64,000 bases of DNA, taken from Syntrophaceae bacterium UBA2188. Its GTDB lineage: Bacteria > Desulfobacterota > BSN033 > UBA1163. Made by a program: the position numbers and the translations under genes. Numbering within the stretch: position 1 is the first letter of the stretch; every line of letters starts with the position of its first letter. This document shows, piece after piece, positions 11,593 to 40,328 of the stretch. Under the pieces are notes generated by a model. It was not told the origin of the DNA. It saw nothing but the letters and a program-made list of their open reading frames with translations, and made no database searches. The stretch covers positions 21,460-85,459 of the forward strand of contig DCVM01000058.1 in NCBI GenBank assembly GCA_002327985.1, given 5' to 3'.

Positions 11593-11599
11593 TTTTTAT

Positions 11600-12667: not shown

Positions 12668-12733
12668 TTTTGCTTTTCTCCCTTGAAGAAAAATAGGTGA
12701 GTTTCTAATTTTATTTTGAAAGATTAATCCTCA

Positions 12734-13726: not shown

Positions 13727-13787
13727 AAGTCACTCCTTTTCCCTCATCCCTCCAACCCCCCTCTCATAAAGGGGGAAAGGTGGGATT

Positions 13788-13819
13788 AAAAAAAAACCAT
13801 GGGTGGATATTGCCCATGG
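13788..13819 (-). terminator. Rho-independent terminator about 60 nt upstream of the trpS start
   Basis: Minus strand: CCAUGGGcaauauccaCCCAUGG (7-bp stem) followed by U9. Could terminate the upstream selenoprotein gene or attenuate trpS. Confidence 0.65.
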
Positions 13820-13979
13820 CCTCTCTTTATTATAAGGGATTAAATTATAGACATAGAGGCGCCAGGCAAAATCCCTTCCTCGTAATTCCACACCATATCC
13901 AGGCCAATTTCATCACCTTATCTTTTAAATAATGACAGGATAATCTATCTTAATTTCAATAAAAAATCAATGGTTCATT

Positions 13980-14435
13980 TCAGGTCATAAAATCGCAGAG
14001 CATCCCGGCAGTTTTCCCAACAATGTCAGTGCACTTTTCAAGACCCCCTGAAGCCAACCATTTTTGCCGTTCCTCTTCATTATCCAAATGACAATTTATC
14101 AGATCATAGCAATAACAGCTCCCAAACTCCTTTTCGAATTCCTTCCAGAATGCCTGGCATTTTCCGTAGATCTTTGTGAGGGCTTCCTTATCCTTGGGAT
14201 CGGATCTTCCCATCTTCATCCCGATAGCCATCACCGCCCCGGTGAATGCGCCGCAAAGCGACCCTTTTCGACCCACCCCTCCACCAAATCCTGTGGCCAA
14301 TTTTGGGATAAGTGGATCCTGAATCCCGAAATACTCCTTGAAACTCAAGGAGATAGATTCCGCTCAGTTAAATCCCTGCTCAAAATAACCTTTCGCCTTT
14401 TCAGAAATCAATTTCACATTCTCTTTCTCTCCCAT
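13980..14435 (-). CDS. C_GCAxxG_C_C family redox protein, predicted selenoprotein (UGA 14364-14366 read as Sec)
   Basis: The track ORF 13980..14348 starts at a TTG and lacks the family N-terminus. In-frame extension: ATG 14433-14435 (GAGGGG SD) gives MGEKENVKLISEKAKGYFEQGFN-U-AESISLSFKEYFG...GFGGGVGRKGSLCGAFTGAVMAIG. The result is about 151 aa, with U where homologues have GxNC(A)(Q/E). Confidence 0.75.
14321..14366 (-). other. Recoded UGA (14364-14366) plus SECIS-like hairpin
   Basis: 11 nt after the UGA: CUCCUUGA-GUU-UCAAGGAG (14334-14352), a perfect 8-bp stem, extended by GAAUC/GAUUC (14321-14325 / 14356-14360). Confidence 0.65.
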
Positions 14436-14568
14436 TGAGTCTTCCCCTCTTAGCCTTTCTTACCGGAAATGGATTAGGGTAGATTTACCATTTTAAAATT
14501 AAAAAAGCTATATGATCTAGCGAAGGATTCATTGAAGGCAAATAAAAAATGAGTTATACAGAGGTTTA

Positions 14569-25840: not shown

Positions 25841-26158
25841 GACGAATTCTCCCTTCTACGGGGTCAATTTCAAATATCCTCTACCATTCCTGAGATCTCA
25901 ATAATTGGCAGATGCTTTGAGTGAATTCTGTGGACATACTACTATTTTAAAGTTTGTTCTTTTAACTTTTCCCATTTTTCTGGTGCCAGGTGACCTTTCT
26001 GTCTTTTGGTTGGAATATACACGATTTTTAAAACATAGGGAAGCAAAACATTAGGCGAAGGGAAAGGGGTACAATCGGAAAAAGGGAAACATTTGAAAAA
26101 TTCACCTCCTACTCATCAGGTGCAGCATGTGAAATCTACCGAAGATTTACAATTGAAA

Positions 26159-26737
26159 TTATCTCAGGCCGTCTTCTCTTTTAGCCTCTTCTTTTTTCAA
26201 ACCACCAATTCTTGCATGAGGTCTGCCTGAATCCGTGACCACGATGGCAACGAGGATTTCATCGGACCGGGGGGCATCGGGAACTCGGACAGTCATGGCA
26301 TCGAAATGAGTACGGACAAAGGCAGCGTCTTTATAATGAAGGGGTACATCAATCTCAGTCCCCGGACCACCCATTTTCTTGGCGGAAGGAATAATCGCCT
26401 TTCCTCCACCAACTGCTTCTCTTAAAGGCGTTCCCAATTTGGGATGCAAGATGGCTGCGGCGTGTTCCAGTTCACCATCTCCCCCCACAATCGCTGCCTT
26501 CCCATAACTCTCTGCATCCTTAGGAGGAATTTTCAATACCTCAACAGCCCTTTTCCCAAGGATTCCCCCCAACTCTTCACCGATATCGATGAGTTCATCC
26601 AATTTTTCTACATACTTCCCTGCAAAAGGATTCTTAATCACTGCGATGGCTGCCGCCTTTCGAGTTGGCGGATCAACTTTTTTCCCTCCTTCGACTGCTG
26701 TCTCCTCTACAATGGTGACATATTTTCTGACTTCCAT
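26159..26737 (-). CDS. Amino-acid-synthesis family protein (PF06684/DUF1185-like)
   Basis: MEVRKYVTIVEETAVEGGKKVDPPTRKAAAIAVIKNPFAG..., recognised as the AA_synth family. Has its own GGGAGGTG RBS. Confidence 0.65.
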   Translation of the reverse strand: MEVRKYVTIVEETAVEGGKKVDPPTRKAAAIAVIKNPFAGKYVEKLDELIDIGEELGGILGKRAVEVLKIPPKDAESYGKAAIVGGDGELEHAAAILHPKLGTPLREAVGGGKAIIPSAKKMGGPGTEIDVPLHYKDAAFVRTHFDAMTVRVPDAPRSDEILVAIVVTDSGRPHARIGGLKKEEAKREDGLR

Positions 26738-26740
26738 ATT

Positions 26741-26827
26741 TCACCTCCCACCCCTCACCCCTGCCTACCGGCTGGCAGGCTATCCCTCTTCCTCAAGGGG
26801 AGAGGGAAACGTGAGGCGGATTTCTTT
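26741..26827. repeat. GC-rich composite palindromic element
   Basis: CCTGCCtaccggctGGCAGG and CCCTCTtcctcaagGGGAGAGGG inverted repeats between two co-directional genes. Confidence 0.55.
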
Positions 26828-27718
26828 TTATAATTTAGTTAACCAAGAACTCAAAATATTTGTCCAAACCACTCTCCCTTTTAAAGCAATTAAAGCTCCA
26901 TGAATCAACCCTTTCTGATAGAGCATGCTTGCTTTTGATAAACCGTTATTCAATGCCTGTTCAATCTTTTCTTGAGTTAATTCTCTAACTTTAATGGTGA
27001 TCCATTCTCCAGCAATGTCTGTATCGGGATAAATTCTTTCAGCAGGGGTTCTGTTAATATTCGGATCATCAATGTTGGTGAAATTTCCTACAACCGTCGC
27101 CGCGGCGTCAGCCAGTGAAGCCTTCTCCGCAAGCACGGTTGCGGCTGAGGCAATCCCTTTGGTGAAACTCCTTCCTCCCAGTCCACTCGTAGCTACTCCA
27201 CCTATCCCCATGGTGGAATCAATTGAAAGGAGATAAATAGGTTGCTTTGCATCGATCTCTGTTTTTACTCCTACTTTTGCCACCTCCTTTTCTCTCAATC
27301 GGATGGCAACATCTCCTCCATTATCCACAATGATTTTTGTTCCCCCTTGACTGAACATAAAATCAGCCACCACATCAGAGGCCGTTCCGGCAACGGCAGA
27401 TAGAGGAGTTAAATCCGGTTCTTCCATTTTCTTTGTGGCTTCAATCATCCTTCGAACTACATCAGGGAACTCCTCCTCGATTTCCAACTCCTGTGATTTC
27501 CTTTTTATTATCGGAAGACACTTTGCTAAATCCTCAAGAACCCCCATAGCGAAACGAGCCCCTTCTTCTGCCAATGTAACAAGAGGTTTTCCATTTTCTG
27601 AGGCATTGATGAACATATGCATGGGACCATAATCCACAAGGACAATCCCATTGTGTAAAACTTGAATAGGATCATGGGTATATATTTTTTCGGCCAATTG
27701 CATAATCATATCAGCCAA
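26828..27718 (-). CDS. UPF0280 family protein (ApbE superfamily)
   Basis: 296 aa. The family assignment is by overall resemblance and by typical co-occurrence with Hnr-like and AA_synth genes; not verified by search. Confidence 0.5.
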   Translation of the reverse strand: MADMIMQLAEKIYTHDPIQVLHNGIVLVDYGPMHMFINASENGKPLVTLAEEGARFAMGVLEDLAKCLPIIKRKSQELEIEEEFPDVVRRMIEATKKMEEPDLTPLSAVAGTASDVVADFMFSQGGTKIIVDNGGDVAIRLREKEVAKVGVKTEIDAKQPIYLLSIDSTMGIGGVATSGLGGRSFTKGIASAATVLAEKASLADAAATVVGNFTNIDDPNINRTPAERIYPDTDIAGEWITIKVRELTQEKIEQALNNGLSKASMLYQKGLIHGALIALKGRVVWTNILSSWLTKL

Positions 27719-27750
27719 ACCACATTAGCTGTGGAAATACACTTTTTAAA

Positions 27751-27812
27751 ATCCCTCCCCACCTCCCTTTGCTAAAGGGAGGAGAAAATTCACCCTCTTT
27801 AATAAAGGGGGG
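27751..27812. repeat. Two GC-rich hairpins (CCTCCCTTT-GCT-AAAGGGAGG; CCCTCTTTAATAAAGGGGGG)
   Basis: Read directly. The second unit resembles 13757-13777 (CCCTCTCATAAAGGGGG). Confidence 0.55.
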
Positions 27813-27850
27813 ACAAGTGGTGATTATGTTTGAATATTGGTCATTGAAAT

Positions 27851-29407
27851 TTATTTGGGTATTGATGCTTGGGGTTTGGTGCTTCTTCCTATCTCCTTCA
27901 ATACTTGCTTCAGCTTCCGTATCTTCTCTTGATGGCCGCCCATTTCCAAATATTCTTTCAATCTCATTGTATATTCGAGGGGAACAACGGTGGCTGGAGT
28001 GGGAACATAGGTAAAAGCCCTGACCATAACCTTTTCAACGTCCACCAAGAAAGTGATTCCTCCCCCCGGAAGGATGTAGGTCGGTGCTCCGCCTACAGTC
28101 AATTTCGCCCGATTTTGATGAATGGCTTGGTTGAGTTTAACAGGAACCTTGGTGACCCCTGCTCTTGCGCTTCCGCCCGAGCCACCAACAAAAACGGCTG
28201 AAACCCTTGACGCCTGACAGTTGGAAGCAATCATATCCACTGCTATTTTCGCCTTGGGAGTTAATTCAATTTGAGTAAACTTTCCATCCTTTCCCAGACG
28301 AAACATAACAGCTCTCTCTGCGGTCGTCTCGGTGATTAGAACCGTCGTCCCAGATTTAGCAATCTTCGTATCGAATCCTTCAATAATTTGAATGGGGTCT
28401 TCAATGGGTGTACCTCCCCAACCCCGGCCAGGCTCACCGAAATATCTGCCTGGGGTGGATTTTCTTGCCTTTAACTTGATCCCACTATATTTTGCCCCCA
28501 GCTCTCTTCCTGCCGCATGCTCTGTAAATTGCCCAATCAGGTGAGCATCGAGGACAATCACTTCGTCTGCTGCATCTAAAAAATACCTTCCGAAAAGCCC
28601 CATGGAGGCACTGCCACACCCTACCCTCATCCTCCTTCCCGTCTCACCATCAATGATCGGGGGTTTAGCCACCTGGAGAACCAGCTCAGCACCCTCCTCG
28701 ACATTAAGATGAACCTCTTTCCTATTCGCAATGTCAACAATGAGTCTCGCCACAGCAATGCCATCCTTGCCTGTTAAAAGATTGACTCCTCCCAGGGAAA
28801 GAATTTTTGAACCATATTCCTCTGTGCAGAGATGACCCACCTTCTTTTTCCCGATCCGAATGGGCGCACCTTCGTTCCCCATATGGAGATCTGTATCGAC
28901 CTTCACCTTGATACCACTGTAGCTCAACGGCGCCTCTGTGACAACGGTGACCACATCGATTCCCTTCAACCGGGATTGGACAATATACGGGGCGGGTTTG
29001 GTATCCGGATAAGTAGTTCCAGCTCCAATACCTGTAATCAACGGCCGACGAATGACCTCCTCATGATCTTCACCGACAATCTCCCTCACATCTTCATAAG
29101 GTTGAAGCGGGATATTCCGGACGAGTTCTCCATCTCGATTGACAAACCGTTGACAGGCTCCCGTATTGCCGACCTTGATCGTGCAGTTGATTGGGCACGA
29201 TGGGCACTGAATGCCCCTTTCTTTCGGCCCTGGCTCAGCTCCGATGGCTTCTTTGGGACAGACCTTGGTGCAAGCCTGACAGTCGACACAGATTTCAGAA
29301 ATGGATGCTTTTTTATCTTTCCTCTCTAGCGCCATAGATATGGCCCCGAGGGGACAAACCTCCATACATAAGCCACATCCAATACAGGTCTCCCAATCAA
29401 CTATCAT
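27851..29407 (-). CDS. Ferredoxin-domain reductase, 6-hydroxynicotinate reductase (Hnr)-like
   Basis: N-terminal 2x[4Fe-4S] motifs (CIGCGLCMEVCP; CVDCQACTKVCP) plus further Cys clusters. Size and context (next to an enamidase homologue) fit Hnr. Confidence 0.6.
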   Translation of the reverse strand: MIVDWETCIGCGLCMEVCPLGAISMALERKDKKASISEICVDCQACTKVCPKEAIGAEPGPKERGIQCPSCPINCTIKVGNTGACQRFVNRDGELVRNIPLQPYEDVREIVGEDHEEVIRRPLITGIGAGTTYPDTKPAPYIVQSRLKGIDVVTVVTEAPLSYSGIKVKVDTDLHMGNEGAPIRIGKKKVGHLCTEEYGSKILSLGGVNLLTGKDGIAVARLIVDIANRKEVHLNVEEGAELVLQVAKPPIIDGETGRRMRVGCGSASMGLFGRYFLDAADEVIVLDAHLIGQFTEHAAGRELGAKYSGIKLKARKSTPGRYFGEPGRGWGGTPIEDPIQIIEGFDTKIAKSGTTVLITETTAERAVMFRLGKDGKFTQIELTPKAKIAVDMIASNCQASRVSAVFVGGSGGSARAGVTKVPVKLNQAIHQNRAKLTVGGAPTYILPGGGITFLVDVEKVMVRAFTYVPTPATVVPLEYTMRLKEYLEMGGHQEKIRKLKQVLKEIGRSTKPQASIPK

Positions 29408-29424
29408 GGTTTCAGTCCTTTTAT

Positions 29425-30591
29425 TTATTGTTTACTGGTTACGACCTTCCCATTAGGTGGTGGAGTATTTCTGCTCACTCCGATCTTCATCACCCCATCA
29501 ATCAACACACCTGCAATCCCTGGGATATCACCCACTTCAATAGCAGAGAGGGCATCTTTGCCAACCGATCCCATGGGTGCATCCATAATCACCAGATCTG
29601 CTTCCTTCCCCACTTCAATGACTCCCCTATTCAATCTGTAAACTCTGGCAGTGTTGCCTGTGGCCATAGCAATGGCTTCCTCTGCTTTCACATTGCAGAG
29701 GGAGGCTAAAAAGTTAATCACCCTGAGAATGCCCAAAGGGATCACGCCCGTTCCAGAGGGAGCATCGTTACCAATAATCATTCTTGGATAAGCCTTGACC
29801 TCTTTTACAATTTTCATCACATCTACAATCATCTTTGAGTTCCCACAGTGGGCAATTTCTAAAATCAAAGAGGTTTTTCGAATCAATTTATCTGCTTCCT
29901 GAAAAGAAATCGCCGTGGGACCTCCATTAATATGGGAGACGATATCTGGACCGGCAGCAATCACATCATCAGCAGGAACGGTTGTACTCCCAGGAATAGA
30001 CGTCCCCCCGGTATGCATCATTACCACCATTCCATATTTCTTTGCCCATTTGACCATGGGGGCTGCATCCTTTGGTGTTTTGATGCCTCCCAAACCAATC
30101 TCCCCCACAACCTTCACTCCTTCTTTGGCCAATTCCTCAAAATCTTTTTCCTGCAAACCAGGCTCAAGAATGAGGCTCCCACCTAATACCTTCACCCCTG
30201 CGGGTCGAGCGCTTGCAAAGGATTTTGCAGCCAGGATCGCAAGGGCTTTTGTTCCTGCTACATCCTTAGGTCTCCCCGGGAGATGAACCTCACCTGCTGA
30301 GATAAGAGTGGTTACCCCCCCGTGAAGCGAGGATTCGATAAAATCTAACATCTTTTGCCTGGGTGTAAAATCTCCAAGAACAGGGTGGCAGTGAGAATCA
30401 ATGAGTCCCGGAGTGATGGTCATCCCCCCAATGTCCAAAACCTGATCTATTCCCTTCGTGTCAAGAGCCTTCTCCTTGCCCAAAGCTTGAATCAATCCTC
30501 CATCTATAATGATGGTGTCTGCATTCAAGACAGGATTAGAAATATCCCCAGAAACCAAAGCGCCAATATTCTTAATCATCAGTTTAGCCAT
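29425..30591 (-). CDS. Enamidase-like amidohydrolase (1,4,5,6-tetrahydro-6-oxonicotinate amidohydrolase family)
   Basis: IKNIGALVSGDISNPVL...GGVTTLISAGEVHLPGRPKDVAGTKALA...MHTGGTSIPGS...VSHINGGPTAI...GNDAPSGTGVIPLGILR closely follows my recollection of the Eubacterium barkeri enamidase sequence. Confidence 0.75.
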   Translation of the reverse strand: MAKLMIKNIGALVSGDISNPVLNADTIIIDGGLIQALGKEKALDTKGIDQVLDIGGMTITPGLIDSHCHPVLGDFTPRQKMLDFIESSLHGGVTTLISAGEVHLPGRPKDVAGTKALAILAAKSFASARPAGVKVLGGSLILEPGLQEKDFEELAKEGVKVVGEIGLGGIKTPKDAAPMVKWAKKYGMVVMMHTGGTSIPGSTTVPADDVIAAGPDIVSHINGGPTAISFQEADKLIRKTSLILEIAHCGNSKMIVDVMKIVKEVKAYPRMIIGNDAPSGTGVIPLGILRVINFLASLCNVKAEEAIAMATGNTARVYRLNRGVIEVGKEADLVIMDAPMGSVGKDALSAIEVGDIPGIAGVLIDGVMKIGVSRNTPPPNGKVVTSKQ

Positions 30592-30608
30592 TTAAAACCT
30601 CCCCATAT

Positions 30609-30638
30609 CGCTATGCGCATAGCGCTAAGCGCTTAGCG
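30609..30638. repeat. Palindromic element CGCTATGCGCATAGCG + CGCTAAGCGCTTAGCG (inverted copy of 4584-4627)
   Basis: Two overlapping perfect 16-bp palindromes. The second contains the stop codon of the hydroxylase large subunit. Confidence 0.7.
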
Positions 30639-32873
30639 TTGTTTACTTTTATGAATCGCTTCCAACACTCGTTCCAAGTTTGCTGGCAAATGGTAAATTC
30701 TCTCCCCAATGGCATCTGCAATCGCATTCAGGATCGCTGGGGCAGAGGGAATAAGGGCTGGTTCTCCAACCCCTTTCGCTCCAAAGGGACCGGTGGGTTC
30801 TTTCTCTTCAACGACAATCGGGATCACTTCCGGAACGTCCTTAGAAGTCGGGATGAGATAATTGACAAAAGAGGTTGTCTTTCCCGGAATGAATTCCTCC
30901 ATCAAGGCAAAACCCGTACCCATGGCGACACCACCCATAATCTGACCCATCACATTTTTTGGATGAATGGCTTTACCCACATCATGGCTGGCAACCATCC
31001 GATTGACCCTCACCTTACCCGTTTCTAAATCCACCTCCACTTCTGCTAAATGAGTGGCAAAGGCATAAGTCGCATAAGGAGCTCCCTGCCCGGTTTCAGG
31101 ATCAAGCCGGGTCGTCTCAGGATCGAAATACCCTTCTCCTCTTATCACCCTTCCACACCTTTTTGCTATCTCTTTAATTGGAATAGATGTCGTTAAGCAG
31201 GTCCTCGATTTGACCTTCCCCTCTTCATAAAAAAGGTCCTTTTCATCAATGCTTAATAGCTGACTTGCTTCTCCGATGGCAACCTCTTTCAAATTTTTAA
31301 TGGCATTAAGGATGGCATTTCCGGAAATATAAGTCTGGCGACTCGCTGAGGTTGCACCTGCATCGGTGGTTATAGCTGTATCCGCCCGAATCAGACGGAA
31401 ATCTTTTAAAGAAACCCCTATTGTTTCAGAAGCAATTTGAAGAAGGATTGTATCAGACCCCTGCCCGATATCTGCCACCCCTGTAAAAAGTCGAATCTCT
31501 CCATTTGGATCAACCTCTACCTGGGCAGTCGAAGGGTTGGCAATCCCTGTATTTCCCACTCCATACCACATCGAACCAATCCCAATGCCTTTTTTAATAA
31601 AGGGTCTTTTTGGATTGTTTTTAGAGAAGAACCCTCGCTCCCTCCACTCTTTTACCTTGTTTAAGGTCTCCCCTATTCCAACACTGGCCATCAACGTTTG
31701 ACCCGTCGCTGTTTCAGATCCCACACGGAGGCAATTTTTAAGACGAATCTCTATTGGGTCCATGTTCAAGGCCTGGGCGAGGAGATCCATCTGTGACTCG
31801 TGGGCGAAGGCCATCTGGGGAACTCCAAAACCGCGCATCGCACCAGACCATGAATTATTGGTATAGACCATCCGGCTTCTAACCTTTACGTTGGGCACCT
31901 GGTAAGGGCCTGTGGCATGGACAGCAGATCGGATGGCTACAGTGGAACCGTAAGAAGCGTAGGCACCCGTATCTCCCAGGATGTCAACCTCCACAGCGGA
32001 AAGGGTCCCATCCCTCTTTGCGCCGCTTTTATATCGAATCTTCAAAGGATGACGTTTAGAGGTAATCTGGAAAACTTCCTCCCTCGAGTAAATAATCTTC
32101 ACTGGCCTTTTCAGATGAAAAACGGCCAGGGCCAGTAAACACTGGACAGTGATGTCTAATCTTCCCCCAAACCCTCCGCCCGTAACAGACTGAATGATTC
32201 TCACCTGATCCAACGGCAAAGAGAGAACAGAAGCCACCTCTTTCTGATCGTAATGGACATTCTGGGTGGGGCAAACTACCGTAATTCTTCCTTGCTCATC
32301 CAGGTAGGAAATCCCTGCATCGGGCTCTAAATAAGCGTGATCCACCCAAGTGGTCGTATAGGTTTCTTCGACAATGACATCCGCTTCTTTAAATCCTCTC
32401 GGGCTATCTCCTTTTATCACATGAAATTCGAGAAGCAGATTTCCTTTATCATGAATCAGAGGAGCATAAGGCTGGAGGGCTTCTTCTGGTTGGAAAACGG
32501 CAGGGAGATCTTCATAGATAACTCTCAATTTCTTCGTTGCCTGTTCTGCAAACTCCTCTCCATTGGCCACCACCAATGCAACGGGATCTCCGATATATCT
32601 CACCCGGTCTGAGGCTAAAATGGGCTGATCCTTGGTAATGGTTCCAACCAGATTTTTCCCGGGAATATCTTTGGCTATGAAGATTTTCTCCACACCTGGA
32701 ACTCGAAGGGCTTCATCCATTTCGATTCTTACAATTTTGGCATGAGGTTTTGGACTGCGGAGGACTTTAAGGAAAAGGAGTTCCCCTGTAGGCAAATCTG
32801 CCCCATACTTCGCTTCACCCAAGGCCTTCTCTAAAACATCCACTTTGGGAACTTCAATCCCTACCTGTCTCAT
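30633..32873 (-). CDS. Molybdopterin-dependent hydroxylase large subunit (xanthine dehydrogenase/nicotinate dehydrogenase family)
   Basis: 746 aa. a/b-hammerhead plus MoCo-binding blocks (GGGFGGR, GQGS, EPxxxGPFGAKGVGE). Confidence 0.85.
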   Translation of the reverse strand: MRQVGIEVPKVDVLEKALGEAKYGADLPTGELLFLKVLRSPKPHAKIVRIEMDEALRVPGVEKIFIAKDIPGKNLVGTITKDQPILASDRVRYIGDPVALVVANGEEFAEQATKKLRVIYEDLPAVFQPEEALQPYAPLIHDKGNLLLEFHVIKGDSPRGFKEADVIVEETYTTTWVDHAYLEPDAGISYLDEQGRITVVCPTQNVHYDQKEVASVLSLPLDQVRIIQSVTGGGFGGRLDITVQCLLALAVFHLKRPVKIIYSREEVFQITSKRHPLKIRYKSGAKRDGTLSAVEVDILGDTGAYASYGSTVAIRSAVHATGPYQVPNVKVRSRMVYTNNSWSGAMRGFGVPQMAFAHESQMDLLAQALNMDPIEIRLKNCLRVGSETATGQTLMASVGIGETLNKVKEWRERGFFSKNNPKRPFIKKGIGIGSMWYGVGNTGIANPSTAQVEVDPNGEIRLFTGVADIGQGSDTILLQIASETIGVSLKDFRLIRADTAITTDAGATSASRQTYISGNAILNAIKNLKEVAIGEASQLLSIDEKDLFYEEGKVKSRTCLTTSIPIKEIAKRCGRVIRGEGYFDPETTRLDPETGQGAPYATYAFATHLAEVEVDLETGKVRVNRMVASHDVGKAIHPKNVMGQIMGGVAMGTGFALMEEFIPGKTTSFVNYLIPTSKDVPEVIPIVVEEKEPTGPFGAKGVGEPALIPSAPAILNAIADAIGERIYHLPANLERVLEAIHKSKQR

Positions 32874-33733
32874 GCCTGTTCTTCCAGGGCCTTTCTCATC
32901 GCTCTAATAAAAAGGGCTTCCACCACTGGCTTTTTATAGGAGGTGGTGGGCCGGATTCCACTTTGGGAAATCATCTTCTCAGAAACCTTGTGTGAAGCTT
33001 TTTGAAAAGATGCTTCATCCAGTGGTTTTCCTTTTAAAAAAGTTTCTGCCTCTAACATCCTTTGAGGAGTGGGTGTCACTGATCCGACTGCGATGCGAAT
33101 ATCCTCTATTTTGCCTCTTTCTATCTGAAAGACAACGGCCACACTCATCCTGGCAATGGCCATGGCCTCCCTTCTGGCAAGTCGAACAAAGCTGCTTCTC
33201 ATATCGGAAGGAAGTTTTAGAAATATGACTTGGGTCAGAAGTTCATAGGGTTTTAAATTCGTTTCATAGGGACCTTTAAATAGTTGATAAAGTGGAACCT
33301 GCCTTTCACCTTCCTTGGACACCACCCTTCCCATCGCATTCAATACCATGAGAGGGGGAATGGTATCTGCTGCGGGAGAAGCATTGATGATATTCCCACC
33401 AATCGTTCCAAGATTTCTGACCTGTGGAGAACCAATCTCCGAAGCTGCGTCGGATAAAACTTTTCCATATTTTTTCACCCAAGAAGACGAAGCCAGTTCA
33501 GAATGAGTAATGGCAGCGCCAATCGAAAGGACACCATTCATTTCCCCAATCTTCCGAAGTTCTTCTATTCTTGTGATGTCGATGATGACCTGAGGGCTCT
33601 GATCCCCATTGCGGAGACCGATCACCAAATCTGTTCCTCCGGCAATGATCTTTGATTTCCCCTCAGCCTGCCACAACAAATCGCAGGCCTCTTCAATGGT
33701 CTTTGGAATTTTATATTCAAAAGGAGGAATCAT
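32870..33733 (-). CDS. Hydroxylase FAD-binding medium subunit (CoxM/XdhB-like)
   Basis: IIAGGTDLVIGLR and NLGTIGGNIINASPAADT motifs. The stop overlaps the large-subunit start. Confidence 0.85.
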   Translation of the reverse strand: MIPPFEYKIPKTIEEACDLLWQAEGKSKIIAGGTDLVIGLRNGDQSPQVIIDITRIEELRKIGEMNGVLSIGAAITHSELASSSWVKKYGKVLSDAASEIGSPQVRNLGTIGGNIINASPAADTIPPLMVLNAMGRVVSKEGERQVPLYQLFKGPYETNLKPYELLTQVIFLKLPSDMRSSFVRLARREAMAIARMSVAVVFQIERGKIEDIRIAVGSVTPTPQRMLEAETFLKGKPLDEASFQKASHKVSEKMISQSGIRPTTSYKKPVVEALFIRAMRKALEEQA

Positions 33734-33827
33734 ATGATCCTACTTAATGTTGGAGGAAAGAGGAGCACTTTGTTTGAGGTAAAAAATTTTTGCCTCTTGC
33801 CTCAAATCCTCCGAAGAAGAACGATCC
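33734..33827. repeat. TTGAGG/CGATCCTCAA word element inserted between hydroxylase subunit genes
   Basis: CGATCCTCAA at 33822-33831 overlaps the S-subunit stop. Contains a TTGAGG...CCTCAA hairpin. The same 10-mer occurs at 40431-40440. Confidence 0.55.
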
Positions 33828-34289
33828 TCAAACCTCTGACGCTTTTGCTATCGCTTCGATGATTTGATGATACCCTGTACACCGGCAGAGATGTCCTGAG
33901 ATCGCCTCCTTGATTTCCTCTATGGTGGGATTCGAATTTTTTCCCAATAATGCCTTTGAAGACATCAATATCCCCGGGGTGCAAAAACCACACTGAATCG
34001 CTCCATGGTCGATAAACGATTTTTGTAATGGATGAAGAGACTCTTGACTTCCAAGGCTCTCTACTGTCTCGACTTTCCTCCCTTCAACTTTTGGAGCCAA
34101 GATCAGACAGGCATTGACAGGCATTCCATCCAATAATACGGTGCAGGCCCCGCATTCACCAATTCCACAACCCTCTTTCGTGCCGGTAAGTCCAAGTTTA
34201 TCTCGAAGGAGCTTTAGAAGGGTCCAGTGAGGAGGCACCTCCACCTGAATTTCTTCTCCATTTAAAATAAACTTAATCATTAAATCCAC
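33828..34289 (-). CDS. Hydroxylase [2Fe-2S] small subunit (CoxS/XdhC-type)
   Basis: GCGIGECGACTV and CGFCTPG cluster motifs. Confidence 0.9.
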   Translation of the reverse strand: MDLMIKFILNGEEIQVEVPPHWTLLKLLRDKLGLTGTKEGCGIGECGACTVLLDGMPVNACLILAPKVEGRKVETVESLGSQESLHPLQKSFIDHGAIQCGFCTPGILMSSKALLGKNSNPTIEEIKEAISGHLCRCTGYHQIIEAIAKASEV

Positions 34290-35764
34290 CTTGTGACGAC
34301 AGTCTTCTCGTCCATAAACATCCTCATCGAGGCCATCCTCGATTTGGCTGTCCCAACAAAGGATTCCCTTCTCGATCCAAGCGGAAAGAAGGCATAGGGT
34401 TGTGCCACACCTACATTGACACCCACATTACCTACATTGACCTCCCTAATGAATTTACGGGCAATCCTGCCATCTCTTGTCATAATACATGCTGTATGAC
34501 CGAGATTAGTTTTTGTATTAATCCACTCGATAACCTGGTCAAGACGTTCACCTCTGATCAAAGCGGCGACTGGGCCGAAAGCCTCCTCTTTCGCCATAGG
34601 CATATCCACATTTACCTCTCCAAGGATCGTGGGACCGAGAAAATAACCCTTTGGGTAATCCTTTACCTTAACGCCCCTTCCATCAAGAACCATCTTGGCT
34701 CCTTCAGACAAGGATTTCTCGATCCATCCAACTACCTTCTCCTTTCCTGCCTGGGTTGTCATGGGCCCTAACTCGATCTCCGTATCCAGTCCATAACCCA
34801 GCTTCATTTTCGCGGCAGCTTCTTTAAACTTTACTTTAACCTCATCATAGATATCACCCATGACAACAATGTTATCGACTCCCAAACAGCGCTGCCCTGA
34901 CATCCCAAAACAGCCTCTGAGCAGCCATTGAATTCCAGAATTGAGATCAGCATCGGGCATGATCACAACGTGGTTCTTACCGTTCCCATTAATGGAAGAA
35001 GTTTTCCCAAGCTTGCCACAAAGCTCGAAAAGCTCCCAGCCTGCCCGATTGGACCCTATAAAACCCACACCTTTCACTTCTGGTTGGGATAATATCTCTT
35101 TATTGATCGTCCTTCCTCCATGGATCAAATTTAAAACACCAGGTGGAAAACCTGCTTCTTGAGCTACTTTGCAGATGGCCTCTGCCGCAACCGGGCACTG
35201 CCTACTGGGACTGACCACCATGGTACACCCAGCCGCAAGACCGTATGGAACAAAAGATGACCAAGCATGCATTGGAATATTGCCTGGCGTAATGATCAGG
35301 AAAGCACCCAGAGGTTCCCAGATGAGGTACTGATCGATGCCGTCTGCGACTTGATCCATGTGTTCATTCCTTTGGGTCAACCCATAAACAGCAGAACAAG
35401 CAGACTCGATATTCTCAATGACCCTTCTCACCGATCCTCTTGCCTCTTCGATCGTCCGACCATGATCCTGAACAAGGATTCGTGAAAGTTCTTCAAAATG
35501 TTCTTCAAATTTTCCCCTCATATCGAAAAGAAGGCGGGCCCGATCTCGAAGAGGCACATTTTTCCATCCCTCAAATGCCCTTTGAGCTGCCACCACTGCA
35601 GCTCGCGCTTCTTCTCTTGTAGCTTCTGGGAATTCCGAAATCACTTCCCCTGTGGCTGGGTTAGGATTTTGATGGAGAATAATGGATTTCGCCTCCACCC
35701 ATTTCCCATCGATAAAAAATCTTTGCTTTCCATAATGATTCTTAACTTCCGGTAGCATGGCCAT
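34280..35764 (-). CDS. CoA-acylating (methyl)malonate-semialdehyde dehydrogenase family aldehyde dehydrogenase (MmsA-like)
   Basis: GNGKNHVVIMPDAD (the MmsA-type block, with Asn in place of the general-base Glu) and the catalytic GQRCLG. Confidence 0.75.
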   Translation of the reverse strand: MAMLPEVKNHYGKQRFFIDGKWVEAKSIILHQNPNPATGEVISEFPEATREEARAAVVAAQRAFEGWKNVPLRDRARLLFDMRGKFEEHFEELSRILVQDHGRTIEEARGSVRRVIENIESACSAVYGLTQRNEHMDQVADGIDQYLIWEPLGAFLIITPGNIPMHAWSSFVPYGLAAGCTMVVSPSRQCPVAAEAICKVAQEAGFPPGVLNLIHGGRTINKEILSQPEVKGVGFIGSNRAGWELFELCGKLGKTSSINGNGKNHVVIMPDADLNSGIQWLLRGCFGMSGQRCLGVDNIVVMGDIYDEVKVKFKEAAAKMKLGYGLDTEIELGPMTTQAGKEKVVGWIEKSLSEGAKMVLDGRGVKVKDYPKGYFLGPTILGEVNVDMPMAKEEAFGPVAALIRGERLDQVIEWINTKTNLGHTACIMTRDGRIARKFIREVNVGNVGVNVGVAQPYAFFPLGSRRESFVGTAKSRMASMRMFMDEKTVVTRWI

Positions 35765-35856
35765 ATGTTACCTCTCCTTTTGATTGAATATTTTCTTCCC
35801 TCTTCCTTTCCTCCTCCTCTTGAGTGATAAGGTGGGGATGATGGCAAATATTAAAG

Positions 35857-37164
35857 CTACCTCCCCATCATTGAAGGTAAAAAGAGAGCAATTTTTGGGA
35901 ATATAGTTATAAAAATGACAACCATAATCATGGAGATCAAAAAAGGCATCGCCCCCCTGAAAATGGTTTGCATGGGAACATCTTTCACGACCCCGGCAAG
36001 AGTATAGACATTGAGCCCAACAGGCGGTGTAATCAGTCCTGCCTCCATCATGATCACGCAGATGACGCCAAACCAGATTGGGTCAAAGCCTAAGGCTTTA
36101 ATCACAGGAAAGATGACAGGCATGGTCAGAACCATCATGGAAATCGCATCCAAGAAACAGCCGAGCATCATGTAAATCAGGATAATGATAGCAAGAATGA
36201 TATATCGCGAGATGTGAAGCCCGGCCATCCAGCTCGAAACCGCCATGGGAATGGTAGAAAGGGCAAGAAAATAACTGAAAACATTTGCTCCCGCCACGAG
36301 AAAGAGAACCAATACTGAAATCCGGACCGCTTCAAGAAGGGAAACAGAAAGACTATGCAAACTCAATTTCTTCTTCAGGAGAACAATGACAAAAAGGGCG
36401 GTCGCACCGATCGCACCAGCCTCTGTCGGATTGATGACCCCCCCATAGATTCCCCCCATGACAATGAAAAAAACCAGCAGTGTTTCCCATATGCCCGAAA
36501 AGGCCTTTAGTTTCTCCTTAAAACTCACCTCTCCAGGAGTGGCTGGAGCTAAACTCGGGTTCAATTTCACCTGACAGACAATAATGGTGACAAAGGCCAG
36601 GGAAAGGAGGATTCCCGGAAAAATCCCCGAGATTAAAAGTTTTCCAATCGATTGCTCGGTAAGCATGCCATAGACCACAAAACCAAGAGAGGGTGGAATG
36701 AGAAAACTTAGCGTCCCGCCTGCTGCCACCGTGCCAACAGCTAATCTTGGAGCATAATTGAACCGTCTCATCTCAGGAATGGCAATCGTCCCCATCGCTG
36801 CTGAGGCTGCAACCGAGGAGCCGCTCAAAGCGGCAAAAAAAGCACAGGCTGAAATCGTGGCAATCCCTAATCCCCCGGGCAATTTCCTGAACCATTTATC
36901 AAAGGATCGATAGAGCTCCCTTGTAATCCCGGCGTTTCCTGCAAATCCTCCCATCAGGATGAAGAGAGGAATGATCGTATAGGGATAATAAGAGGCGGTC
37001 TCATAAACGGTTTTGGCGATAACAGGCAATGCAGCATTGAGGGAGGTCAAATAACTAATGCCCAGAAATCCTACCAACATCATGACAAAGGCAATGGGCA
37101 TCCCAAGAAACAATAAGATGACAAGCAGTACACTCCCCAATATTCCTACCGTAATGGGATTCAC
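35857..37164 (-). CDS. dctM: TRAP transporter large permease
   Basis: 435-aa polytopic protein with typical DctM blocks. Overlaps the dctQ stop. Confidence 0.85.
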   Translation of the reverse strand: MNPITVGILGSVLLVILLFLGMPIAFVMMLVGFLGISYLTSLNAALPVIAKTVYETASYYPYTIIPLFILMGGFAGNAGITRELYRSFDKWFRKLPGGLGIATISACAFFAALSGSSVAASAAMGTIAIPEMRRFNYAPRLAVGTVAAGGTLSFLIPPSLGFVVYGMLTEQSIGKLLISGIFPGILLSLAFVTIIVCQVKLNPSLAPATPGEVSFKEKLKAFSGIWETLLVFFIVMGGIYGGVINPTEAGAIGATALFVIVLLKKKLSLHSLSVSLLEAVRISVLVLFLVAGANVFSYFLALSTIPMAVSSWMAGLHISRYIILAIIILIYMMLGCFLDAISMMVLTMPVIFPVIKALGFDPIWFGVICVIMMEAGLITPPVGLNVYTLAGVVKDVPMQTIFRGAMPFLISMIMVVIFITIFPKIALFLPSMMGR

Positions 37165-37652
37165 CCTTCCCTCCTCTTGAGTTTTCCTATTGAATTAACA
37201 AGGTCTGTCAGAAGTTCCAGCCATAGAAGGAAGCCTCCCACGGCAACGAGGATCCGGAATGGATATTGGGGAATTCTCAGCATGTCCGAGACAGTACGTT
37301 CTCGGATGCCTTCTAACCAACCGTACCATATGACGATGGCAATGATGAACAAACTAAGTATCGTTGTGATGATCTCGCAGACAACTCGAACACGGGGAGA
37401 TAACCGGGAGGTAAGAAAATCAACCCCGACGTGCCCCTTCACCTGCTGGGTGTAAGCGGCACCCAACAGGATGAAGGTGGCTAAGATATATTCGGATATT
37501 TCAAAGGTCCCCGGGATTGTTTTAGAAAGAAATTTTCTACCTATGATATCGCCAGTGGTGAGCAACATCAATGGAATGATAAAAAACATCCCTATGACAC
37601 AGACATAAAAATTGATGCGGTGAATCATCTTTTGAGTTTTAGCCCACCACAT
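37161..37652 (-). CDS. dctQ: TRAP transporter small permease
   Basis: 163 aa, four hydrophobic segments, positioned between dctP and dctM. Confidence 0.8.
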   Translation of the reverse strand: MWWAKTQKMIHRINFYVCVIGMFFIIPLMLLTTGDIIGRKFLSKTIPGTFEISEYILATFILLGAAYTQQVKGHVGVDFLTSRLSPRVRVVCEIITTILSLFIIAIVIWYGWLEGIRERTVSDMLRIPQYPFRILVAVGGFLLWLELLTDLVNSIGKLKRREG

Positions 37653-37679
37653 GTCCTGCCACTCCTAAAAATTCGATCG

Positions 37680-38747
37680 TTACTTCCATTCAGGTGGGAA
37701 GGCTGCCACCTTTACACCTCGTTTTTCACATTCCTCATTGTACATACGGACCACTTCTTTAGCCTTCAGACCCTTCCCTTCAAGATCTGATACCCACTTT
37801 CTTGTTACATCTCTGAAGCGGTCATACCATCGTTCCGCCTCCTTTGATGGAAGATTATAGAGTTCCACTTTCTTGTCAGTAATTTCATTCAACATCGTTT
37901 TATAAACTTCTCTGGTCAATCCTCCTGTTGTGTGGAAGGGATTGTGGCATACATCCTCGACGACGGGCTTAAGGTCATCAGGTGTCTTTTTCCAGCTTTC
38001 CTGATTCATAATGACACCTTCAGAAACGCAACCAAAGGTTGTGACGACTGCATGCTTTGTCACCTCATAGAGTTTGAAAGAAAGGATCAAGGGGGGACAG
38101 GTTACGATTCCATCAATTGTTCCTGTTTCCATTGCCATATAGACGTCCCCGAGAGGCATGAAGATTGGCTCTGCTCCAAGTGACTTAATATAATGGGTTT
38201 GATGACCCCCAGGGCTCCTTATCTTGAGGCCCTTCACATCCTCGAGGGTTCTCACGGGTTTTTTGGTCCACATGAAAGCCTGGATGCATCCATTCAACTC
38301 CACCATTTTTACTCCAGGAAATTCCTGGTTAAGAACACGTTTATACATGGCATTTCCTATATCTGTCGCAATATCCTTCCCATCAACCCATGCAGCCAAA
38401 GAAAGAACATCGGTCAATGGAAAGCGGCCTGGCGTCCAGGTGGCGGTAAAGTAACCCATATCCGAAAGGCCTTTCGCGACGATATCAAAATGTTCTGGCC
38501 CCTTCCCGAGGGCACCTCCTGCGTACATCGTCGATGTAATTCTCCCCTTGCTCTTCTTCTTCAGCTCTTCAAGCATCGGCTCCCAGACGGTCTTGACCTC
38601 CCGGCTAACCGGAACATGCCAGGTGCTAAACCTTAAATTAGTAGCTTGACCATAAGCCAAATGAGAATGGCCTAATCCCGTTCCTACTGCGATACCCCCC
38701 ACCACTGAACTTTTTATAAAATCCCTTCTTGTGATTTTTCTAGACAT
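37680..38747 (-). CDS. dctP: TRAP transporter substrate-binding protein (Tat signal)
   Basis: SRKITRRDFIKSSVVGG twin-arginine leader. DctP-family body. Confidence 0.8.
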   Translation of the reverse strand: MSRKITRRDFIKSSVVGGIAVGTGLGHSHLAYGQATNLRFSTWHVPVSREVKTVWEPMLEELKKKSKGRITSTMYAGGALGKGPEHFDIVAKGLSDMGYFTATWTPGRFPLTDVLSLAAWVDGKDIATDIGNAMYKRVLNQEFPGVKMVELNGCIQAFMWTKKPVRTLEDVKGLKIRSPGGHQTHYIKSLGAEPIFMPLGDVYMAMETGTIDGIVTCPPLILSFKLYEVTKHAVVTTFGCVSEGVIMNQESWKKTPDDLKPVVEDVCHNPFHTTGGLTREVYKTMLNEITDKKVELYNLPSKEAERWYDRFRDVTRKWVSDLEGKGLKAKEVVRMYNEECEKRGVKVAAFPPEWK

Positions 38748-38873
38748 TTTACACCTCCTGCCTGAATGATCTCTTGATGAGTTTTAAAAAAAATTCACCT
38801 CCTCTCTCTAAAGATATCTTTTTTCTACATGCTTGATTTAGCATTAAATTTGTACCTTTTAGTCTTTATTTAA

Positions 38874-39425
38874 TCAAAAGGTCGGTGGACTCACCACCCA
38901 TATGACGACCGCCTTTTTTTTACTTGGGTTTGACCAGCTATGAGGTTCCTGGGATGAAAAATAGAAACTTTCGTTTTTCTTCAGTCGATACGCCTTCCCA
39001 TTTAGGTTGATTTCCAGATTTCCCTTCAAAACAATTCCACATTCTTCTCCGATATGGGAGTAAAATCCTTTCGACCCACCTCCGGGTTCGATGGTTGTAT
39101 AAAAAGGTTGCATTCTTTTATTTTGAATATTTCGAACAAGCATCTGTATTTTAGCTTCCCCTCGTTTAAACCTTATCTTTACCCTTTCCGCCTCTTTGCA
39201 GACCACATCGTTCTCTTTTGTTTCTGGCTCAAGGAAGAAATCAACCACTTTTACCTGAAGGGCAGAAGCAATTTTTTTCAGGATCATGATAGAAGGGTTT
39301 GCACGACCCCTTTCGAGCTGGGAAAGGTAGGCATCTGTGCAGCCAGCTTTGTTAGCCAGTTGTTTGAGGGTCATTCGGTTCGCCAAGCGGAAGACCTTGA
39401 GTTTTTCGGCAATCTCTTTCATCAA
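38874..39425 (-). CDS. XRE-family HTH regulator with cupin domain (probable regulator of the catabolic island)
   Basis: LRLANRMTLKQLANKAGCTDAYLSQLERG HTH. C-terminal cupin (HIGEECGIVLKGNLEI). First gene of the minus-strand island. Confidence 0.8.
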   Translation of the reverse strand: MMKEIAEKLKVFRLANRMTLKQLANKAGCTDAYLSQLERGRANPSIMILKKIASALQVKVVDFFLEPETKENDVVCKEAERVKIRFKRGEAKIQMLVRNIQNKRMQPFYTTIEPGGGSKGFYSHIGEECGIVLKGNLEINLNGKAYRLKKNESFYFSSQEPHSWSNPSKKKAVVIWVVSPPTF

Positions 39426-39566
39426 AGCAACATTAAATATAATTACATCTAATTAACAAATATTTAATATCTAAAAATTTGTCAAGCAGAAAAATAGTCC
39501 TTGTTTTTGTCATTCTGGACTTGATTCAGAATCCCTATAAAGAGACCCTGATTAGAGGTCAGCCAA

Positions 39567-40328
39567 TTACACATTCCCCCCTTCGCAAGAATGACCTTTA
39601 GGGGTCAGTGTGTAATCTATCTTAATGTTGGAAAGGGCGCGGAAGATATTTCCTTTGACCCGACGGTCCTTCTTATTTAAAGACCCAATGATATCCTTGA
39701 TCACTTTCCTTTTTGTCTTTCCGGAACTCGGGCAACCGCTTGGACCGAAAGGCAAATCCATCTCTCGGGCGAATCTCTCAACTTTTTTCTCCTCCAATAA
39801 GGCAAAGGGACGAATCAAAGTAATCTTCCCCTTAAAGAGGGTTTGAAGGGGGACCATCGTGCTGATTTCAGCACTATAAAAAATATTAAGAAGAAGAGTT
39901 TCAATGATATCATCCTGGTGATGGCCAAGAGCAATCTTGTTACATTTGAAACGTTGCACAAGATGAAACAGATGTTTTCTTCTCTCCCATGAGCAGAGGA
40001 AACAGGGGTTTTCTCTATTCTCAGGGCTGTTTGCTCTTCTCCCAATATCGGTGAACTCAATGTGATAAGCAAGCCCTTTATTTTCAAAATAATTCTTCAG
40101 GATCTCGGCTCGGCCGGAACCAAAACCGAGGTCAATGTAGACCGGGAAAAGTTCATAACGGATGGGAACCCGTTTGCTCCGTTCATGGAGGAGATGGAAC
40201 AATGAAAGGCTATCTTTCCCTCCAGAGACTCCCACCATAATCCGGTCTCCCTCCTGGATCAAACCATAACGGTGGATCGCCTTTCCCATCAAGCTTCGAA
40301 TCTCTTTCTGCCAGTATGCCATTGTCAT
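39567..40328 (-). CDS. ttcA: tRNA 2-thiocytidine biosynthesis protein TtcA-like PP-loop ATPase
   Basis: VGVSGGKDSLSL PP-loop. CFLCSWERR and GCPSSG Cys motifs. Confidence 0.75.
   Translation of the reverse strand: MTMAYWQKEIRSLMGKAIHRYGLIQEGDRIMVGVSGGKDSLSLFHLLHERSKRVPIRYELFPVYIDLGFGSGRAEILKNYFENKGLAYHIEFTDIGRRANSPENRENPCFLCSWERRKHLFHLVQRFKCNKIALGHHQDDIIETLLLNIFYSAEISTMVPLQTLFKGKITLIRPFALLEEKKVERFAREMDLPFGPSGCPSSGKTKRKVIKDIIGSLNKKDRRVKGNIFRALSNIKIDYTLTPKGHSCEGGNV

Follow-up and report, generated by a model that had tools for sequence, protein, structure and literature searches.

How do anaerobic bacteria dispose of the product of nicotinate ring opening when the lower pathway known from the model organism is not found in their genomes? 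This question is raised by a 12-gene operon at positions 26159-39425 of a 64,000-nucleotide stretch of DNA (the window, meaning the whole stretch analyzed) from Syntrophaceae bacterium UBA2188 (assembly GCA_002327985.1, contig DCVM01000058.1). To our knowledge, Eubacterium barkeri is the only strict anaerobe whose nicotinate catabolism has been elucidated at the genetic level; once the ring is open, it needs a vitamin B12-dependent mutase and six more enzymes. Sulfate reducers capable of complete nicotinate oxidation have been known since 1983, and we know of no pathway assigned to them. The first three enzymes of the E. barkeri fermentation, nicotinate dehydrogenase (Ndh), 6-hydroxynicotinate reductase (Hnr) and enamidase (Ena), yield 2-formylglutarate (PMC9304392). 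The operon encodes apparent homologs of all three and, in addition, an aldehyde dehydrogenase (ALDH) of the malonate/methylmalonate-semialdehyde dehydrogenase (MSDH) family, and we consider it probable that this ALDH converts 2-formylglutarate directly to glutaryl-CoA. An initial annotation of the window had proposed such a route, from nicotinate-type ring opening via an MmsA-like ALDH to glutaryl-CoA, and each computational check suggested with it gave a favorable result. Comparative genomics thus supports the proposal, through sequence homology, the conservation of mechanistic residues, the linkage of the genes, their phyletic pattern and the failure to find the alternative branch.

The window corresponds to positions 21460-85459 of contig C159 in a 3.98-Mb metagenome-assembled genome (MAG) of 186 contigs (completeness 98.5%, contamination 4.4%), from an uncultured relative of sulfate reducers, the closest relatives of which are labelled Syntrophaceae or Thermodesulfobacteriota. 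The block is filled by 12 open reading frames (ORFs), all on the minus strand, with intergenic gaps of 17-132 nt and three overlaps (DctQ/DctM, 4 nt; ALDH/[2Fe-2S] subunit, 10 nt; FAD/molybdopterin subunit, 4 nt). All 12 ORFs of the initial annotation were thus recovered, and Pfam and NCBIfam searches agree with every family named there, from the XRE-cupin regulator to AA_synth (Table 1). The block is a real 12-gene operon. Its arrangement cannot be put down to chance, its core being seen again in 80 related loci.

The operon very likely encodes a nicotinate-type upper pathway. In the molybdopterin subunit of the Mo hydroxylase, residues 5-409 match NdhL of E. barkeri (PDB 3HRD chain A) with an E-value of 1e-128, the top PDB match, and residues 427-740 match NdhM (3HRD chain B, a 330-residue chain) with 5e-79, the fifth match by E-value. 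The presence of both matches in one protein identifies this subunit as a fused NdhLM, whereas NdhL and NdhM are separate proteins in E. barkeri. Below NdhL, the ranking includes 4-hydroxybenzoyl-CoA reductase (2.9e-108), aldehyde oxidoreductases and xanthine dehydrogenases, and no other PDB enzyme surpasses the two Ndh chains combined. Together with the adjoining Fer2/Fer2_2 and FAD_binding_5 subunits, these matches bear out the homology with E. barkeri Ndh that had been claimed. The amidohydrolase, encoded by a single-copy gene in this genome, matches E. barkeri enamidase (2VUN) over residues 1-380 with an E-value of 9e-144, compared to 2e-07 for the next PDB match, as expected of an ortholog, and is 64% identical to the Ena copies of a Tepidanaerobacter locus with an E. 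barkeri-type lower pathway.

The Hnr-like protein begins with a 2x[4Fe-4S] domain (residues 1-57), the remaining 460 or so residues matching no Pfam family, and has approximately 5000 relatives, some of which are named 6-hydroxynicotinate reductase by NCBI and JGI. Among annotated relatives, it shares 41% identity with the RefSeq "6-hydroxynicotinate reductase" encoded in a plasmid cluster of Sulfitobacter, and a protein of this proteobacterial cluster has been reported to share 42% identity with the Hnr of E. barkeri (Shettigar et al. 2012, PMC3511419). The original naming of the amidohydrolase as an enamidase homolog is retained, and the Fe-S protein is a putative Hnr, supported indirectly through these relatives. 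A reductive pyrimidine pathway, evoked by the JGI name "PreA subunit" for the Hnr-like protein, was considered and rejected, because the name derives from the ferredoxin domain alone and because the hydrolase matches dihydropyrimidinase with an E-value of 2e-07, far behind its match to enamidase. A gene of the isochorismatase family that passes the NCBIfam nicotinamidase cut-off (181.5 > 174) is present in 16 related loci, and a 60%-identical copy is encoded on contig C146 of the window genome. The Ndh, Hnr and Ena homologies, combined with the nicotinamidase, point to nicotinate or nicotinamide as the likeliest substrate.

The ALDH scores best against TIGR01722 (methylmalonate-semialdehyde dehydrogenase), with 386 bits (cut-off 448.5) compared to 271 bits for the next of 41 ALDH models, and its top PDB matches are all MSDHs. 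Related loci encode either a close relative of this protein (type A) or a second variant (type B), which is about 38-40% identical to type A, usually occupies the same position in the cluster and passes TIGR01722 with 460.9 bits. When the window ALDH is aligned to the Bacillus subtilis MSDH (1T90) via a type-B ALDH (locus L054), with ALDH2 positions mapped by hand, the equivalents of Arg124, Arg301 and Cys302 are R114, R292 and C293, and none of the three varies among the 29 type-A and 13 type-B sequences compared. At position 268, every type-A sequence has Asn and every type-B sequence has Gln, the generic paralogs have Leu, Gln or Ala, and Glu is absent. We take Arg124 and Arg301 to hold the beta-carboxylate in MSDH, Cys302 to be the catalytic residue and Glu268 to be the general base of hydrolytic ALDHs. 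In the MSDH mechanism, a thioacyl-enzyme carrying the beta-carboxylate is decarboxylated, and CoA then releases the product; the lack of the general-base Glu268 points to such CoA-dependent release after beta-decarboxylation. The ALDH fold, the cysteine, the two arginines and the lack of Glu268 are common to the window ALDH and the known MSDHs, B. subtilis IolA/MmsA and human ALDH6A1, so that it appears to be a diverged member of this CoA-acylating family and, presumably, acylates CoA itself. The two motifs quoted in the initial annotation, GQRCLG and GNGKNH, are found at residues 290 and 260, respectively, and its assignment of the ALDH to the MmsA type withstands scrutiny, given the MSDH residues, the PDB matches and the tie to enamidase across the phylum.

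In a quick maximum-likelihood tree of 63 sequences, type A and type B each form a single clade (support 100) with a stem of more than 1 change per site, apart from the generic MSDH-like paralogs of the phylum, which include second copies in Ena-positive genomes and the paralog of the window genome on contig C144. The two types are sisters with a support of 88, with long branches meeting at that node; two independent recruitments of MSDH, a scenario that we considered, were not retained, because the sister placement makes a single recruitment followed by divergence equally possible. The equivalent of Trp177 is Ser in type A and Tyr in type B, compared to Trp in 17/18 generic sequences and 1T90; the equivalent of Phe459 is Leu or Val in both types (Leu in the window ALDH) versus Phe in the generic group; and an Arg at window residue 476 is present in 42/42 type-A and type-B sequences versus 1/18 generic ones. 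Positions 124, 177, 301 and 459 presumably line the substrate tunnel, as in ALDH structures. The smaller tunnel residues and the extra arginine suggest a fit to a substrate with an added carboxyethyl group.

The linkage of the ALDH to enamidase was assessed in 80 loci from species genomes that encode an enamidase relative. The core comprising the Mo hydroxylase, Ena, Hnr, UPF0280 and AA_synth recurs throughout these loci, with varying transporters and regulators. Of these loci, 36 extend at least 8 kb to either side of Ena; 20 of the 36 encode a type-A ALDH (57-92% identical to that of the window), 10 a type-B ALDH and 6 neither. Unlike the known MSDHs, the window ALDH is linked to enamidase and not to genes for valine, beta-alanine or inositol catabolism. 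The six exceptions are instructive: three have an Old-Yellow-Enzyme-type flavoprotein in the position of the ALDH, and one, from a Tepidanaerobacter MAG (locus L052), has in its stead an E. barkeri-type lower branch consisting of an aconitase-type DmdAB, a B12-domain mutase (Mgm), a PrpF-type isomerase (Mii), a MutL-type reactivase and a phosphoenolpyruvate (PEP)-mutase-type lyase.

To examine the phyletic pattern, 301 genomes (200 genera) were sampled evenly across the phylum; these genomes are related, so that the counts are descriptive and overstate independence. Enamidase is present in 51 of the 301 genomes and 33 of the 200 genera. The identities of the ALDH matches fall into two bands, 57-100% and 43% or less, with none between, and this empty gap allows type A to be defined by sequence rather than by context. 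So defined, type A is represented in 34 genomes, which belong to at least 14 families and are all Ena-positive (34/34, that is, 34 of the 51), and it is absent from the 250 genomes without Ena; 25 of the 34 have both genes on one contig, no more than 10 kb apart. Of the other 17 Ena-positive genomes, 11 encode an MSDH-like ALDH of 36-41% identity within 10 kb of Ena. Beyond the phylum, type-A ALDHs with 77-79% identity are found in nic clusters of Bacillota/Dethiobacteria MAGs, and also on further metagenome contigs. None was detected in plasmid records at 1e-90.

The initial annotation held that the genes of the B12-mutase branch are missing from the block, and indeed neither the block nor the surrounding 34 kb that we examined was found to contain any of them. 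We extended the search to the whole genome with the Tepidanaerobacter proteins as queries and with the Pfam families PrpF and SDH_alpha. In this 98.5%-complete genome, Mii, the MutL-like reactivase and the Dml/PEP-mutase-type lyase had no match at 1e-5, and PrpF and SDH_alpha (the dehydratase) had no match either; for Mgm, no full-length homolog was found in the genome, with B12-domain matches only (28-30% identity over about 140 residues). The aconitase-type matches, at 35-41% identity and with three paralogs, are read as generic for these reasons, and one generic beta-hydroxyacid dehydrogenase is encoded on contig C97. The complete E. barkeri lower branch (Hgd, Hmd, mutase, Mii, Dmd, Dml) was not found in the window genome, a result in favor of the proposed route.

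The pathway would thus proceed as follows. Nicotinate would be imported by the tripartite ATP-independent periplasmic (TRAP) system, and nicotinamide would enter via the nicotinamidase encoded elsewhere in the genome. The Mo hydroxylase (NdhF, NdhS and the fused NdhLM) would convert nicotinate to 6-hydroxynicotinate, the Hnr-like Fe-S enzyme would convert the latter to 1,4,5,6-tetrahydro-6-oxonicotinate, and enamidase would produce 2-formylglutarate and ammonia, all three steps being putatively assigned by close homology to characterized enzymes. In the new step that we infer here, the ALDH would bind 2-formylglutarate as a 2-substituted malonate semialdehyde, and the aldehyde would be oxidized by NAD+ while attached to Cys293; the beta-carboxyl group, bound by the conserved pair of arginines, would be lost as CO2, and CoA would then release glutaryl-CoA. 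Glutaryl-CoA would be converted to crotonyl-CoA and then acetyl-CoA via an Acd-type dehydrogenase and, probably, glutaconyl-CoA decarboxylase, and the B12-dependent branch of E. barkeri would be bypassed.

In the search for these downstream enzymes, suggested in the initial annotation, one candidate dehydrogenase stands out, and the beta subunit of a Na+-translocating decarboxylase is present, but the decarboxylase could not be assembled as a unit. Among the 32 acyl-CoA dehydrogenase genes of the genome, one outside the window (C115:7714-8877) scores 463.3 bits on NF045552 (Acd), compared to 326.6 for the next paralog, and has as its top PDB match (1e-110) 3MPI, the non-decarboxylating glutaryl-CoA dehydrogenase known from Desulfococcus multivorans and Syntrophus. 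Given the near miss on the NF045552 cut-off of 470, we treat this gene as a candidate only. An Acd-type match with an E-value of 1e-122 or less is present in 48 of the 51 Ena-positive versus 74 of the 250 Ena-negative genomes, and in 5/5 small (1.5-1.8 Mb) genomes that carry the cluster. The genome also encodes OAD_beta and several carboxyltransferases. The neighborhood of the single OAD_beta gene (contig C81) was rejected as a decarboxylase unit, since it consists of a P-type ATPase and housekeeping genes and not of GcdA/GcdC. Acyl-CoA dehydrogenases that adjoin the nic clusters in L139 and L140 were likewise dropped as linked glutaryl-CoA dehydrogenases, because their scores on NF045552 (294-321 bits) resemble those of any short-chain acyl-CoA dehydrogenase. 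As an observation apart, about 20 glutaryl-CoA-dehydrogenase-like matches, in families including f15 and f2 (e.g., G015:C72, G189:C156 and G047:C13), contain exactly one in-frame TAA or TAG, which could reflect read-through past the gene end or a shared feature.

Several points weigh against a direct conversion of 2-formylglutarate to glutaryl-CoA by the ALDH. The substrate is assigned, tentatively, from gene context and conserved residues, and the window ALDH falls short of the TIGR01722 cut-off. Six full loci lack any such ALDH, a few Ena-positive genomes (G036, G221 and G291) lack an MSDH-like one, and, the sampled genomes being related, the counts overstate independence. Conversely, a 77%-identical type-A ALDH occurs without Ena within 10 kb (locus L137; European Nucleotide Archive contig of 4.16 Mb, 10001-16000). 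Downstream, the glutaryl-CoA dehydrogenase candidate remains 7 bits below its cut-off, and no glutaconyl-CoA decarboxylase operon was found in the window genome, where OAD_beta has no carboxyltransferase neighbor. Finally, as a beta-aldehydo acid, 2-formylglutarate may already be decarboxylated by the time it meets the enzyme.

The last point leads to an alternative that we regard as unlikely, namely, that 2-formylglutarate first loses CO2, spontaneously or through a decarboxylase, and that the ALDH then oxidizes glutarate semialdehyde to glutaryl-CoA, or to free glutarate, with activation taking place elsewhere. Lability is a general property of beta-aldehydo acids, and in Azorhizobium, decarboxylation reportedly comes first, as a separate reaction followed by oxidation to free glutarate and CoA transfer. 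That Azorhizobium caulinodans catabolizes nicotinate via glutarate is stated in a passage of PMC3511419, which cites Kitts et al. 1992. On a Mesorhizobium plasmid, moreover, AA_synth and Ena lie about 2 kb from an ALDH of the succinate-semialdehyde type, outside the MSDH family. Yet both beta-carboxylate arginines are invariant in all 42 nic-linked ALDHs, which would be unexpected if the substrate had no carboxylate to bind; no decarboxylase family is conserved in the clusters; and AA_synth, the sole unexplained companion of Ena, is also present in the Tepidanaerobacter locus, which retains the carboxyl group for the mutase branch. Free glutarate would, in addition, be an unlikely product in a family without Glu268.

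A different substrate altogether, such as another pyridine carboxylate or a related lactam, with the ALDH taking the matching 2-substituted malonate semialdehyde, seems improbable. The DctP ligand cannot be predicted, transporters and regulators differ among the related loci, and the genome encodes at least five Mo-hydroxylase paralogs, some beside TRAP genes, which suggests degradation of several heterocycles or aromatics; against this, the Mo subunit and the hydrolase are closest in PDB to the nicotinate enzymes by large margins, Ena closely resembles its counterparts in the locus with the E. barkeri-type lower pathway, and 16 related loci include a bona fide nicotinamidase. We find it still harder to believe that the ALDH is an ordinary MSDH that merely happens to be located in the operon while unlinked enzymes dispose of 2-formylglutarate. 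Database annotation does name it malonate/methylmalonate-semialdehyde dehydrogenase, and its homolog in L137 adjoins a 3-hydroxyisobutyrate-dehydrogenase-like gene, the classic pairing of the valine pathway. Type A is, however, confined to the Ena-positive genomes of the sample, the genome already possesses a generic MSDH paralog in another cluster, and the tunnel residues of types A and B are remodelled relative to generic MSDH. The L137 neighbor itself has as its best PDB match the E. barkeri 2-(hydroxymethyl)glutarate dehydrogenase (3CKY, 233 bits) rather than human 3-hydroxyisobutyrate dehydrogenase (218 bits), by 15 bits only, a margin too small to decide.

Comparison with the known systems delimits what is new in the proposed direct conversion of 2-formylglutarate to glutaryl-CoA. 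The window operon shares with the E. barkeri nicotinate fermentation cluster (reportedly described by Alhapel and colleagues in 2006, in PNAS 103:12341; structures 3HRD, 2VUN and 3CKY) the enzymes of the first three steps, with the Hnr-like protein as the putative counterpart of the reductase. In place of the lower branch (Hmd, Mgm, Mii, Dmd, Dml), which was not found in the block or the genome, it encodes the MSDH-family ALDH and a TRAP importer, in contrast to the E. barkeri-type locus L052, which has no ALDH. In Azorhizobium, as is proposed for the window organism, the carbon skeleton ends in the glutarate/glutaryl-CoA pathway, the difference being that decarboxylation, oxidation and CoA transfer are proposed here for a single enzyme. 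The Sulfitobacter and Comamonadaceae clusters that we inspected encode Hnr, UPF0280, two AA_synth proteins, Ena, a ferredoxin-NADP reductase and an ABC transporter, and no ALDH. Relative to MSDH, the window ALDH stands out by its lower TIGR01722 score, its separate clade, the Ser and Leu in the tunnel and the clade-specific Arg476. The C115 candidate, located outside the window, resembles the glutaryl-CoA dehydrogenase of D. multivorans and Syntrophus and scores 136 bits above the next paralog, but falls slightly short of the family cut-off and was not found with its partner decarboxylase as a unit. A full-text search, with most subscription journals outside its coverage, found no paper that links an MSDH-type enzyme to 2-formylglutarate. 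What would be new, then, is a dedicated MSDH-type ALDH as the fourth enzyme; the conversion of nicotinate to glutarate or glutaryl-CoA is not a new idea, since a route via glutarate is known from the physiology of Azorhizobium.

On balance, we lean, by a little, toward a broader conclusion, that the two Ena-linked ALDH clades represent a new activity, 2-formylglutarate dehydrogenase, that would complete a B12-independent, four-enzyme route from nicotinate to glutaryl-CoA; that this would be the main route of vitamin B3 mineralization in anoxic sediments and digesters, present in roughly one-sixth of the sampled Desulfobacterota genomes and in Bacillota; and that it would supply the pathway of sulfate reducers such as Desulfococcus niacini. 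If so, one ALDH replaces the whole lower branch of E. barkeri and joins nicotinate breakdown to the anaerobic glutaryl-CoA route, and the MSDH mechanism gains a new substrate class. Current pipelines name the type-A ALDH methylmalonate-semialdehyde dehydrogenase, suggesting valine catabolism; if the proposal is correct, the type-A gene, being found in the sample only in genomes that also carry enamidase, would be a clean marker for vitamin B3 turnover in anoxic metagenomes.

Table 1. Genes of the operon in the order of transcription (coordinates in the window)
Feature	Coordinates	Strand	Evidence
XRE-HTH (helix-turn-helix) + cupin regulator, PuuR-like architecture, first gene of the block	38874..39425	-	Pfam HTH_3 3e-13, Cupin_2 2e-17
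TRAP solute-binding protein DctP, twin-arginine-type N-terminus (TRRDF)	37680..38747	-	Pfam DctP 2e-40
TRAP small membrane subunit DctQ	37161..37652	-	Pfam DctQ 1.6e-29
TRAP large membrane subunit DctM	35857..37164	-	Pfam DctM 7.8e-93; 4-nt overlap with dctQ
MSDH-family ALDH, type A; proposed 2-formylglutarate dehydrogenase (decarboxylating, CoA-acylating)	34280..35764	-	TIGR01722, PDB, residues, linkage
[2Fe-2S] subunit of Mo hydroxylase (NdhS-like)	33828..34289	-	Pfam Fer2_2 1e-31, Fer2; NCBIfam XdhC-type models
FAD subunit of Mo hydroxylase (NdhF-like)	32870..33733	-	Pfam FAD_binding_5 4e-48, CO_deh_flav_C 6e-20
Molybdopterin subunit, NdhL + NdhM fusion, 746 aa	30633..32873	-	Ald_Xan_dh_C, MoCoBD_1, MoCoBD_2; PDB 3HRD
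Enamidase (1,4,5,6-tetrahydro-6-oxonicotinate hydrolase/deaminase) ortholog	29425..30591	-	Amidohydro_1; PDB 2VUN
6-Hydroxynicotinate reductase-family Fe-S protein (Hnr-like), 518 aa	27851..29407	-	Fer4; named relatives
UPF0280/ApbE-like protein	26828..27718	-	NCBIfam PRK04334.1-2 227 bits; weak Pfam ApbE 3.7e-4
AA_synth (DUF1185) protein	26159..26737	-	Pfam AA_synth 1.2e-75

The last two genes of the operon encode UPF0280 and AA_synth, the PDB relatives of which are a hypothetical protein (2O34) and uncharacterized proteins (2QTP, 3BYQ), respectively. UPF0280 adjoins Hnr in Desulfobacterota, Bacillota, Alphaproteobacteria and Betaproteobacteria, and across these groups the two proteins accompany Hnr and Ena (window 26159-27718; also L111, L134, L135, L138, L052 and L112), with two AA_synth copies in the proteobacterial clusters. 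AA_synth adjoins Ena even where no Hnr homolog was found (L052, L112). Both are putative accessory proteins of the Hnr and Ena steps, and UPF0280 is possibly an ApbE-like flavin transferase involved in flavin attachment to, or maturation of, Hnr.

Among the related loci, L070 of strain NaphS2 contains the complete cluster, and some others deviate from the common organization. L052 contains two enamidase copies, split NdhL and NdhM, and AA_synth, with no Hnr homolog within 10 kb, and the position of Hnr is occupied by a fumarate-reductase-type flavoprotein (FAD_binding_2, 502 aa). In L035, L041 and L068, a 644-aa flavoprotein that combines Old-Yellow-Enzyme and Pyr_redox_2 domains (e.g., L068:4354-6288) holds the position of the ALDH, which looks like another fate of 2-formylglutarate or another arrangement of the reductase; a canonical ApbE gene is located nearby in L068 (19242-20354). 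The neighbors of the ALDH in L137 are the beta-hydroxyacid dehydrogenase, the large and small subunits of AcnX, a GD_AH-type dehydratase and a TAXI-TRAP system, and this locus could encode a route from 2-methyleneglutarate or 2-(hydroxymethyl)glutarate to glutaryl-CoA, in which the ALDH would be fed 2-formylglutarate from another source. In G246, a genome of the same genus as the window genome, C60:13987-19236 encodes an enamidase 60% identical to that of the window and a type-B-like ALDH (39%), indicating that the nic cluster has been exchanged or replaced within the genus.

The regulator scores 83 bits on the NCBIfam PuuR model, far below the cut-off; regulators of this type are found in 11 related loci, and GntR, IclR or sigma-54 activators in others. 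The genes for DctP, DctQ and DctM are adjacent, forming a complete TRAP system, and the related loci encode either TRAP or Liv-type ABC transporters. PDB relatives of DctP are all distant (best, 5e-27), so that its ligand cannot be inferred from them. Consensus scans of 25700-39700 for promoters and terminators yielded no more sites than shuffled sequence and are therefore uninformative on the operon boundaries. The flanking genes are unrelated to the operon: a PP-loop ATPase, an HhH-GPD glycosylase and ABC-2 permeases on one side and, directly downstream (21800-25840, minus strand), a 1346-aa repeat protein with DUF1565 (pectin-lyase-like), DUF5123, fn3 and glucodextranase-B-like domains, which is probably a secreted or surface protein with no relation to the operon.

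Elsewhere in the genome, the generic MSDH paralog (C144:40142-41626, locus L109) belongs to a cluster with a GntR regulator, a Liv-type ABC transporter, a 666-aa CoA transferase and a MaoC dehydratase. At least five further paralogs of the Mo-hydroxylase large subunit (31-43% identical) are encoded on C63, C85, C131, C145 and C177, with TRAP genes adjacent on C63 and at distances of about 10 kb on C145 and about 30 kb on C131; the C145 paralog is also near an acyl-CoA dehydrogenase gene. The organism looks like a specialist in the catabolism of N-heterocycles, aromatics and acids.

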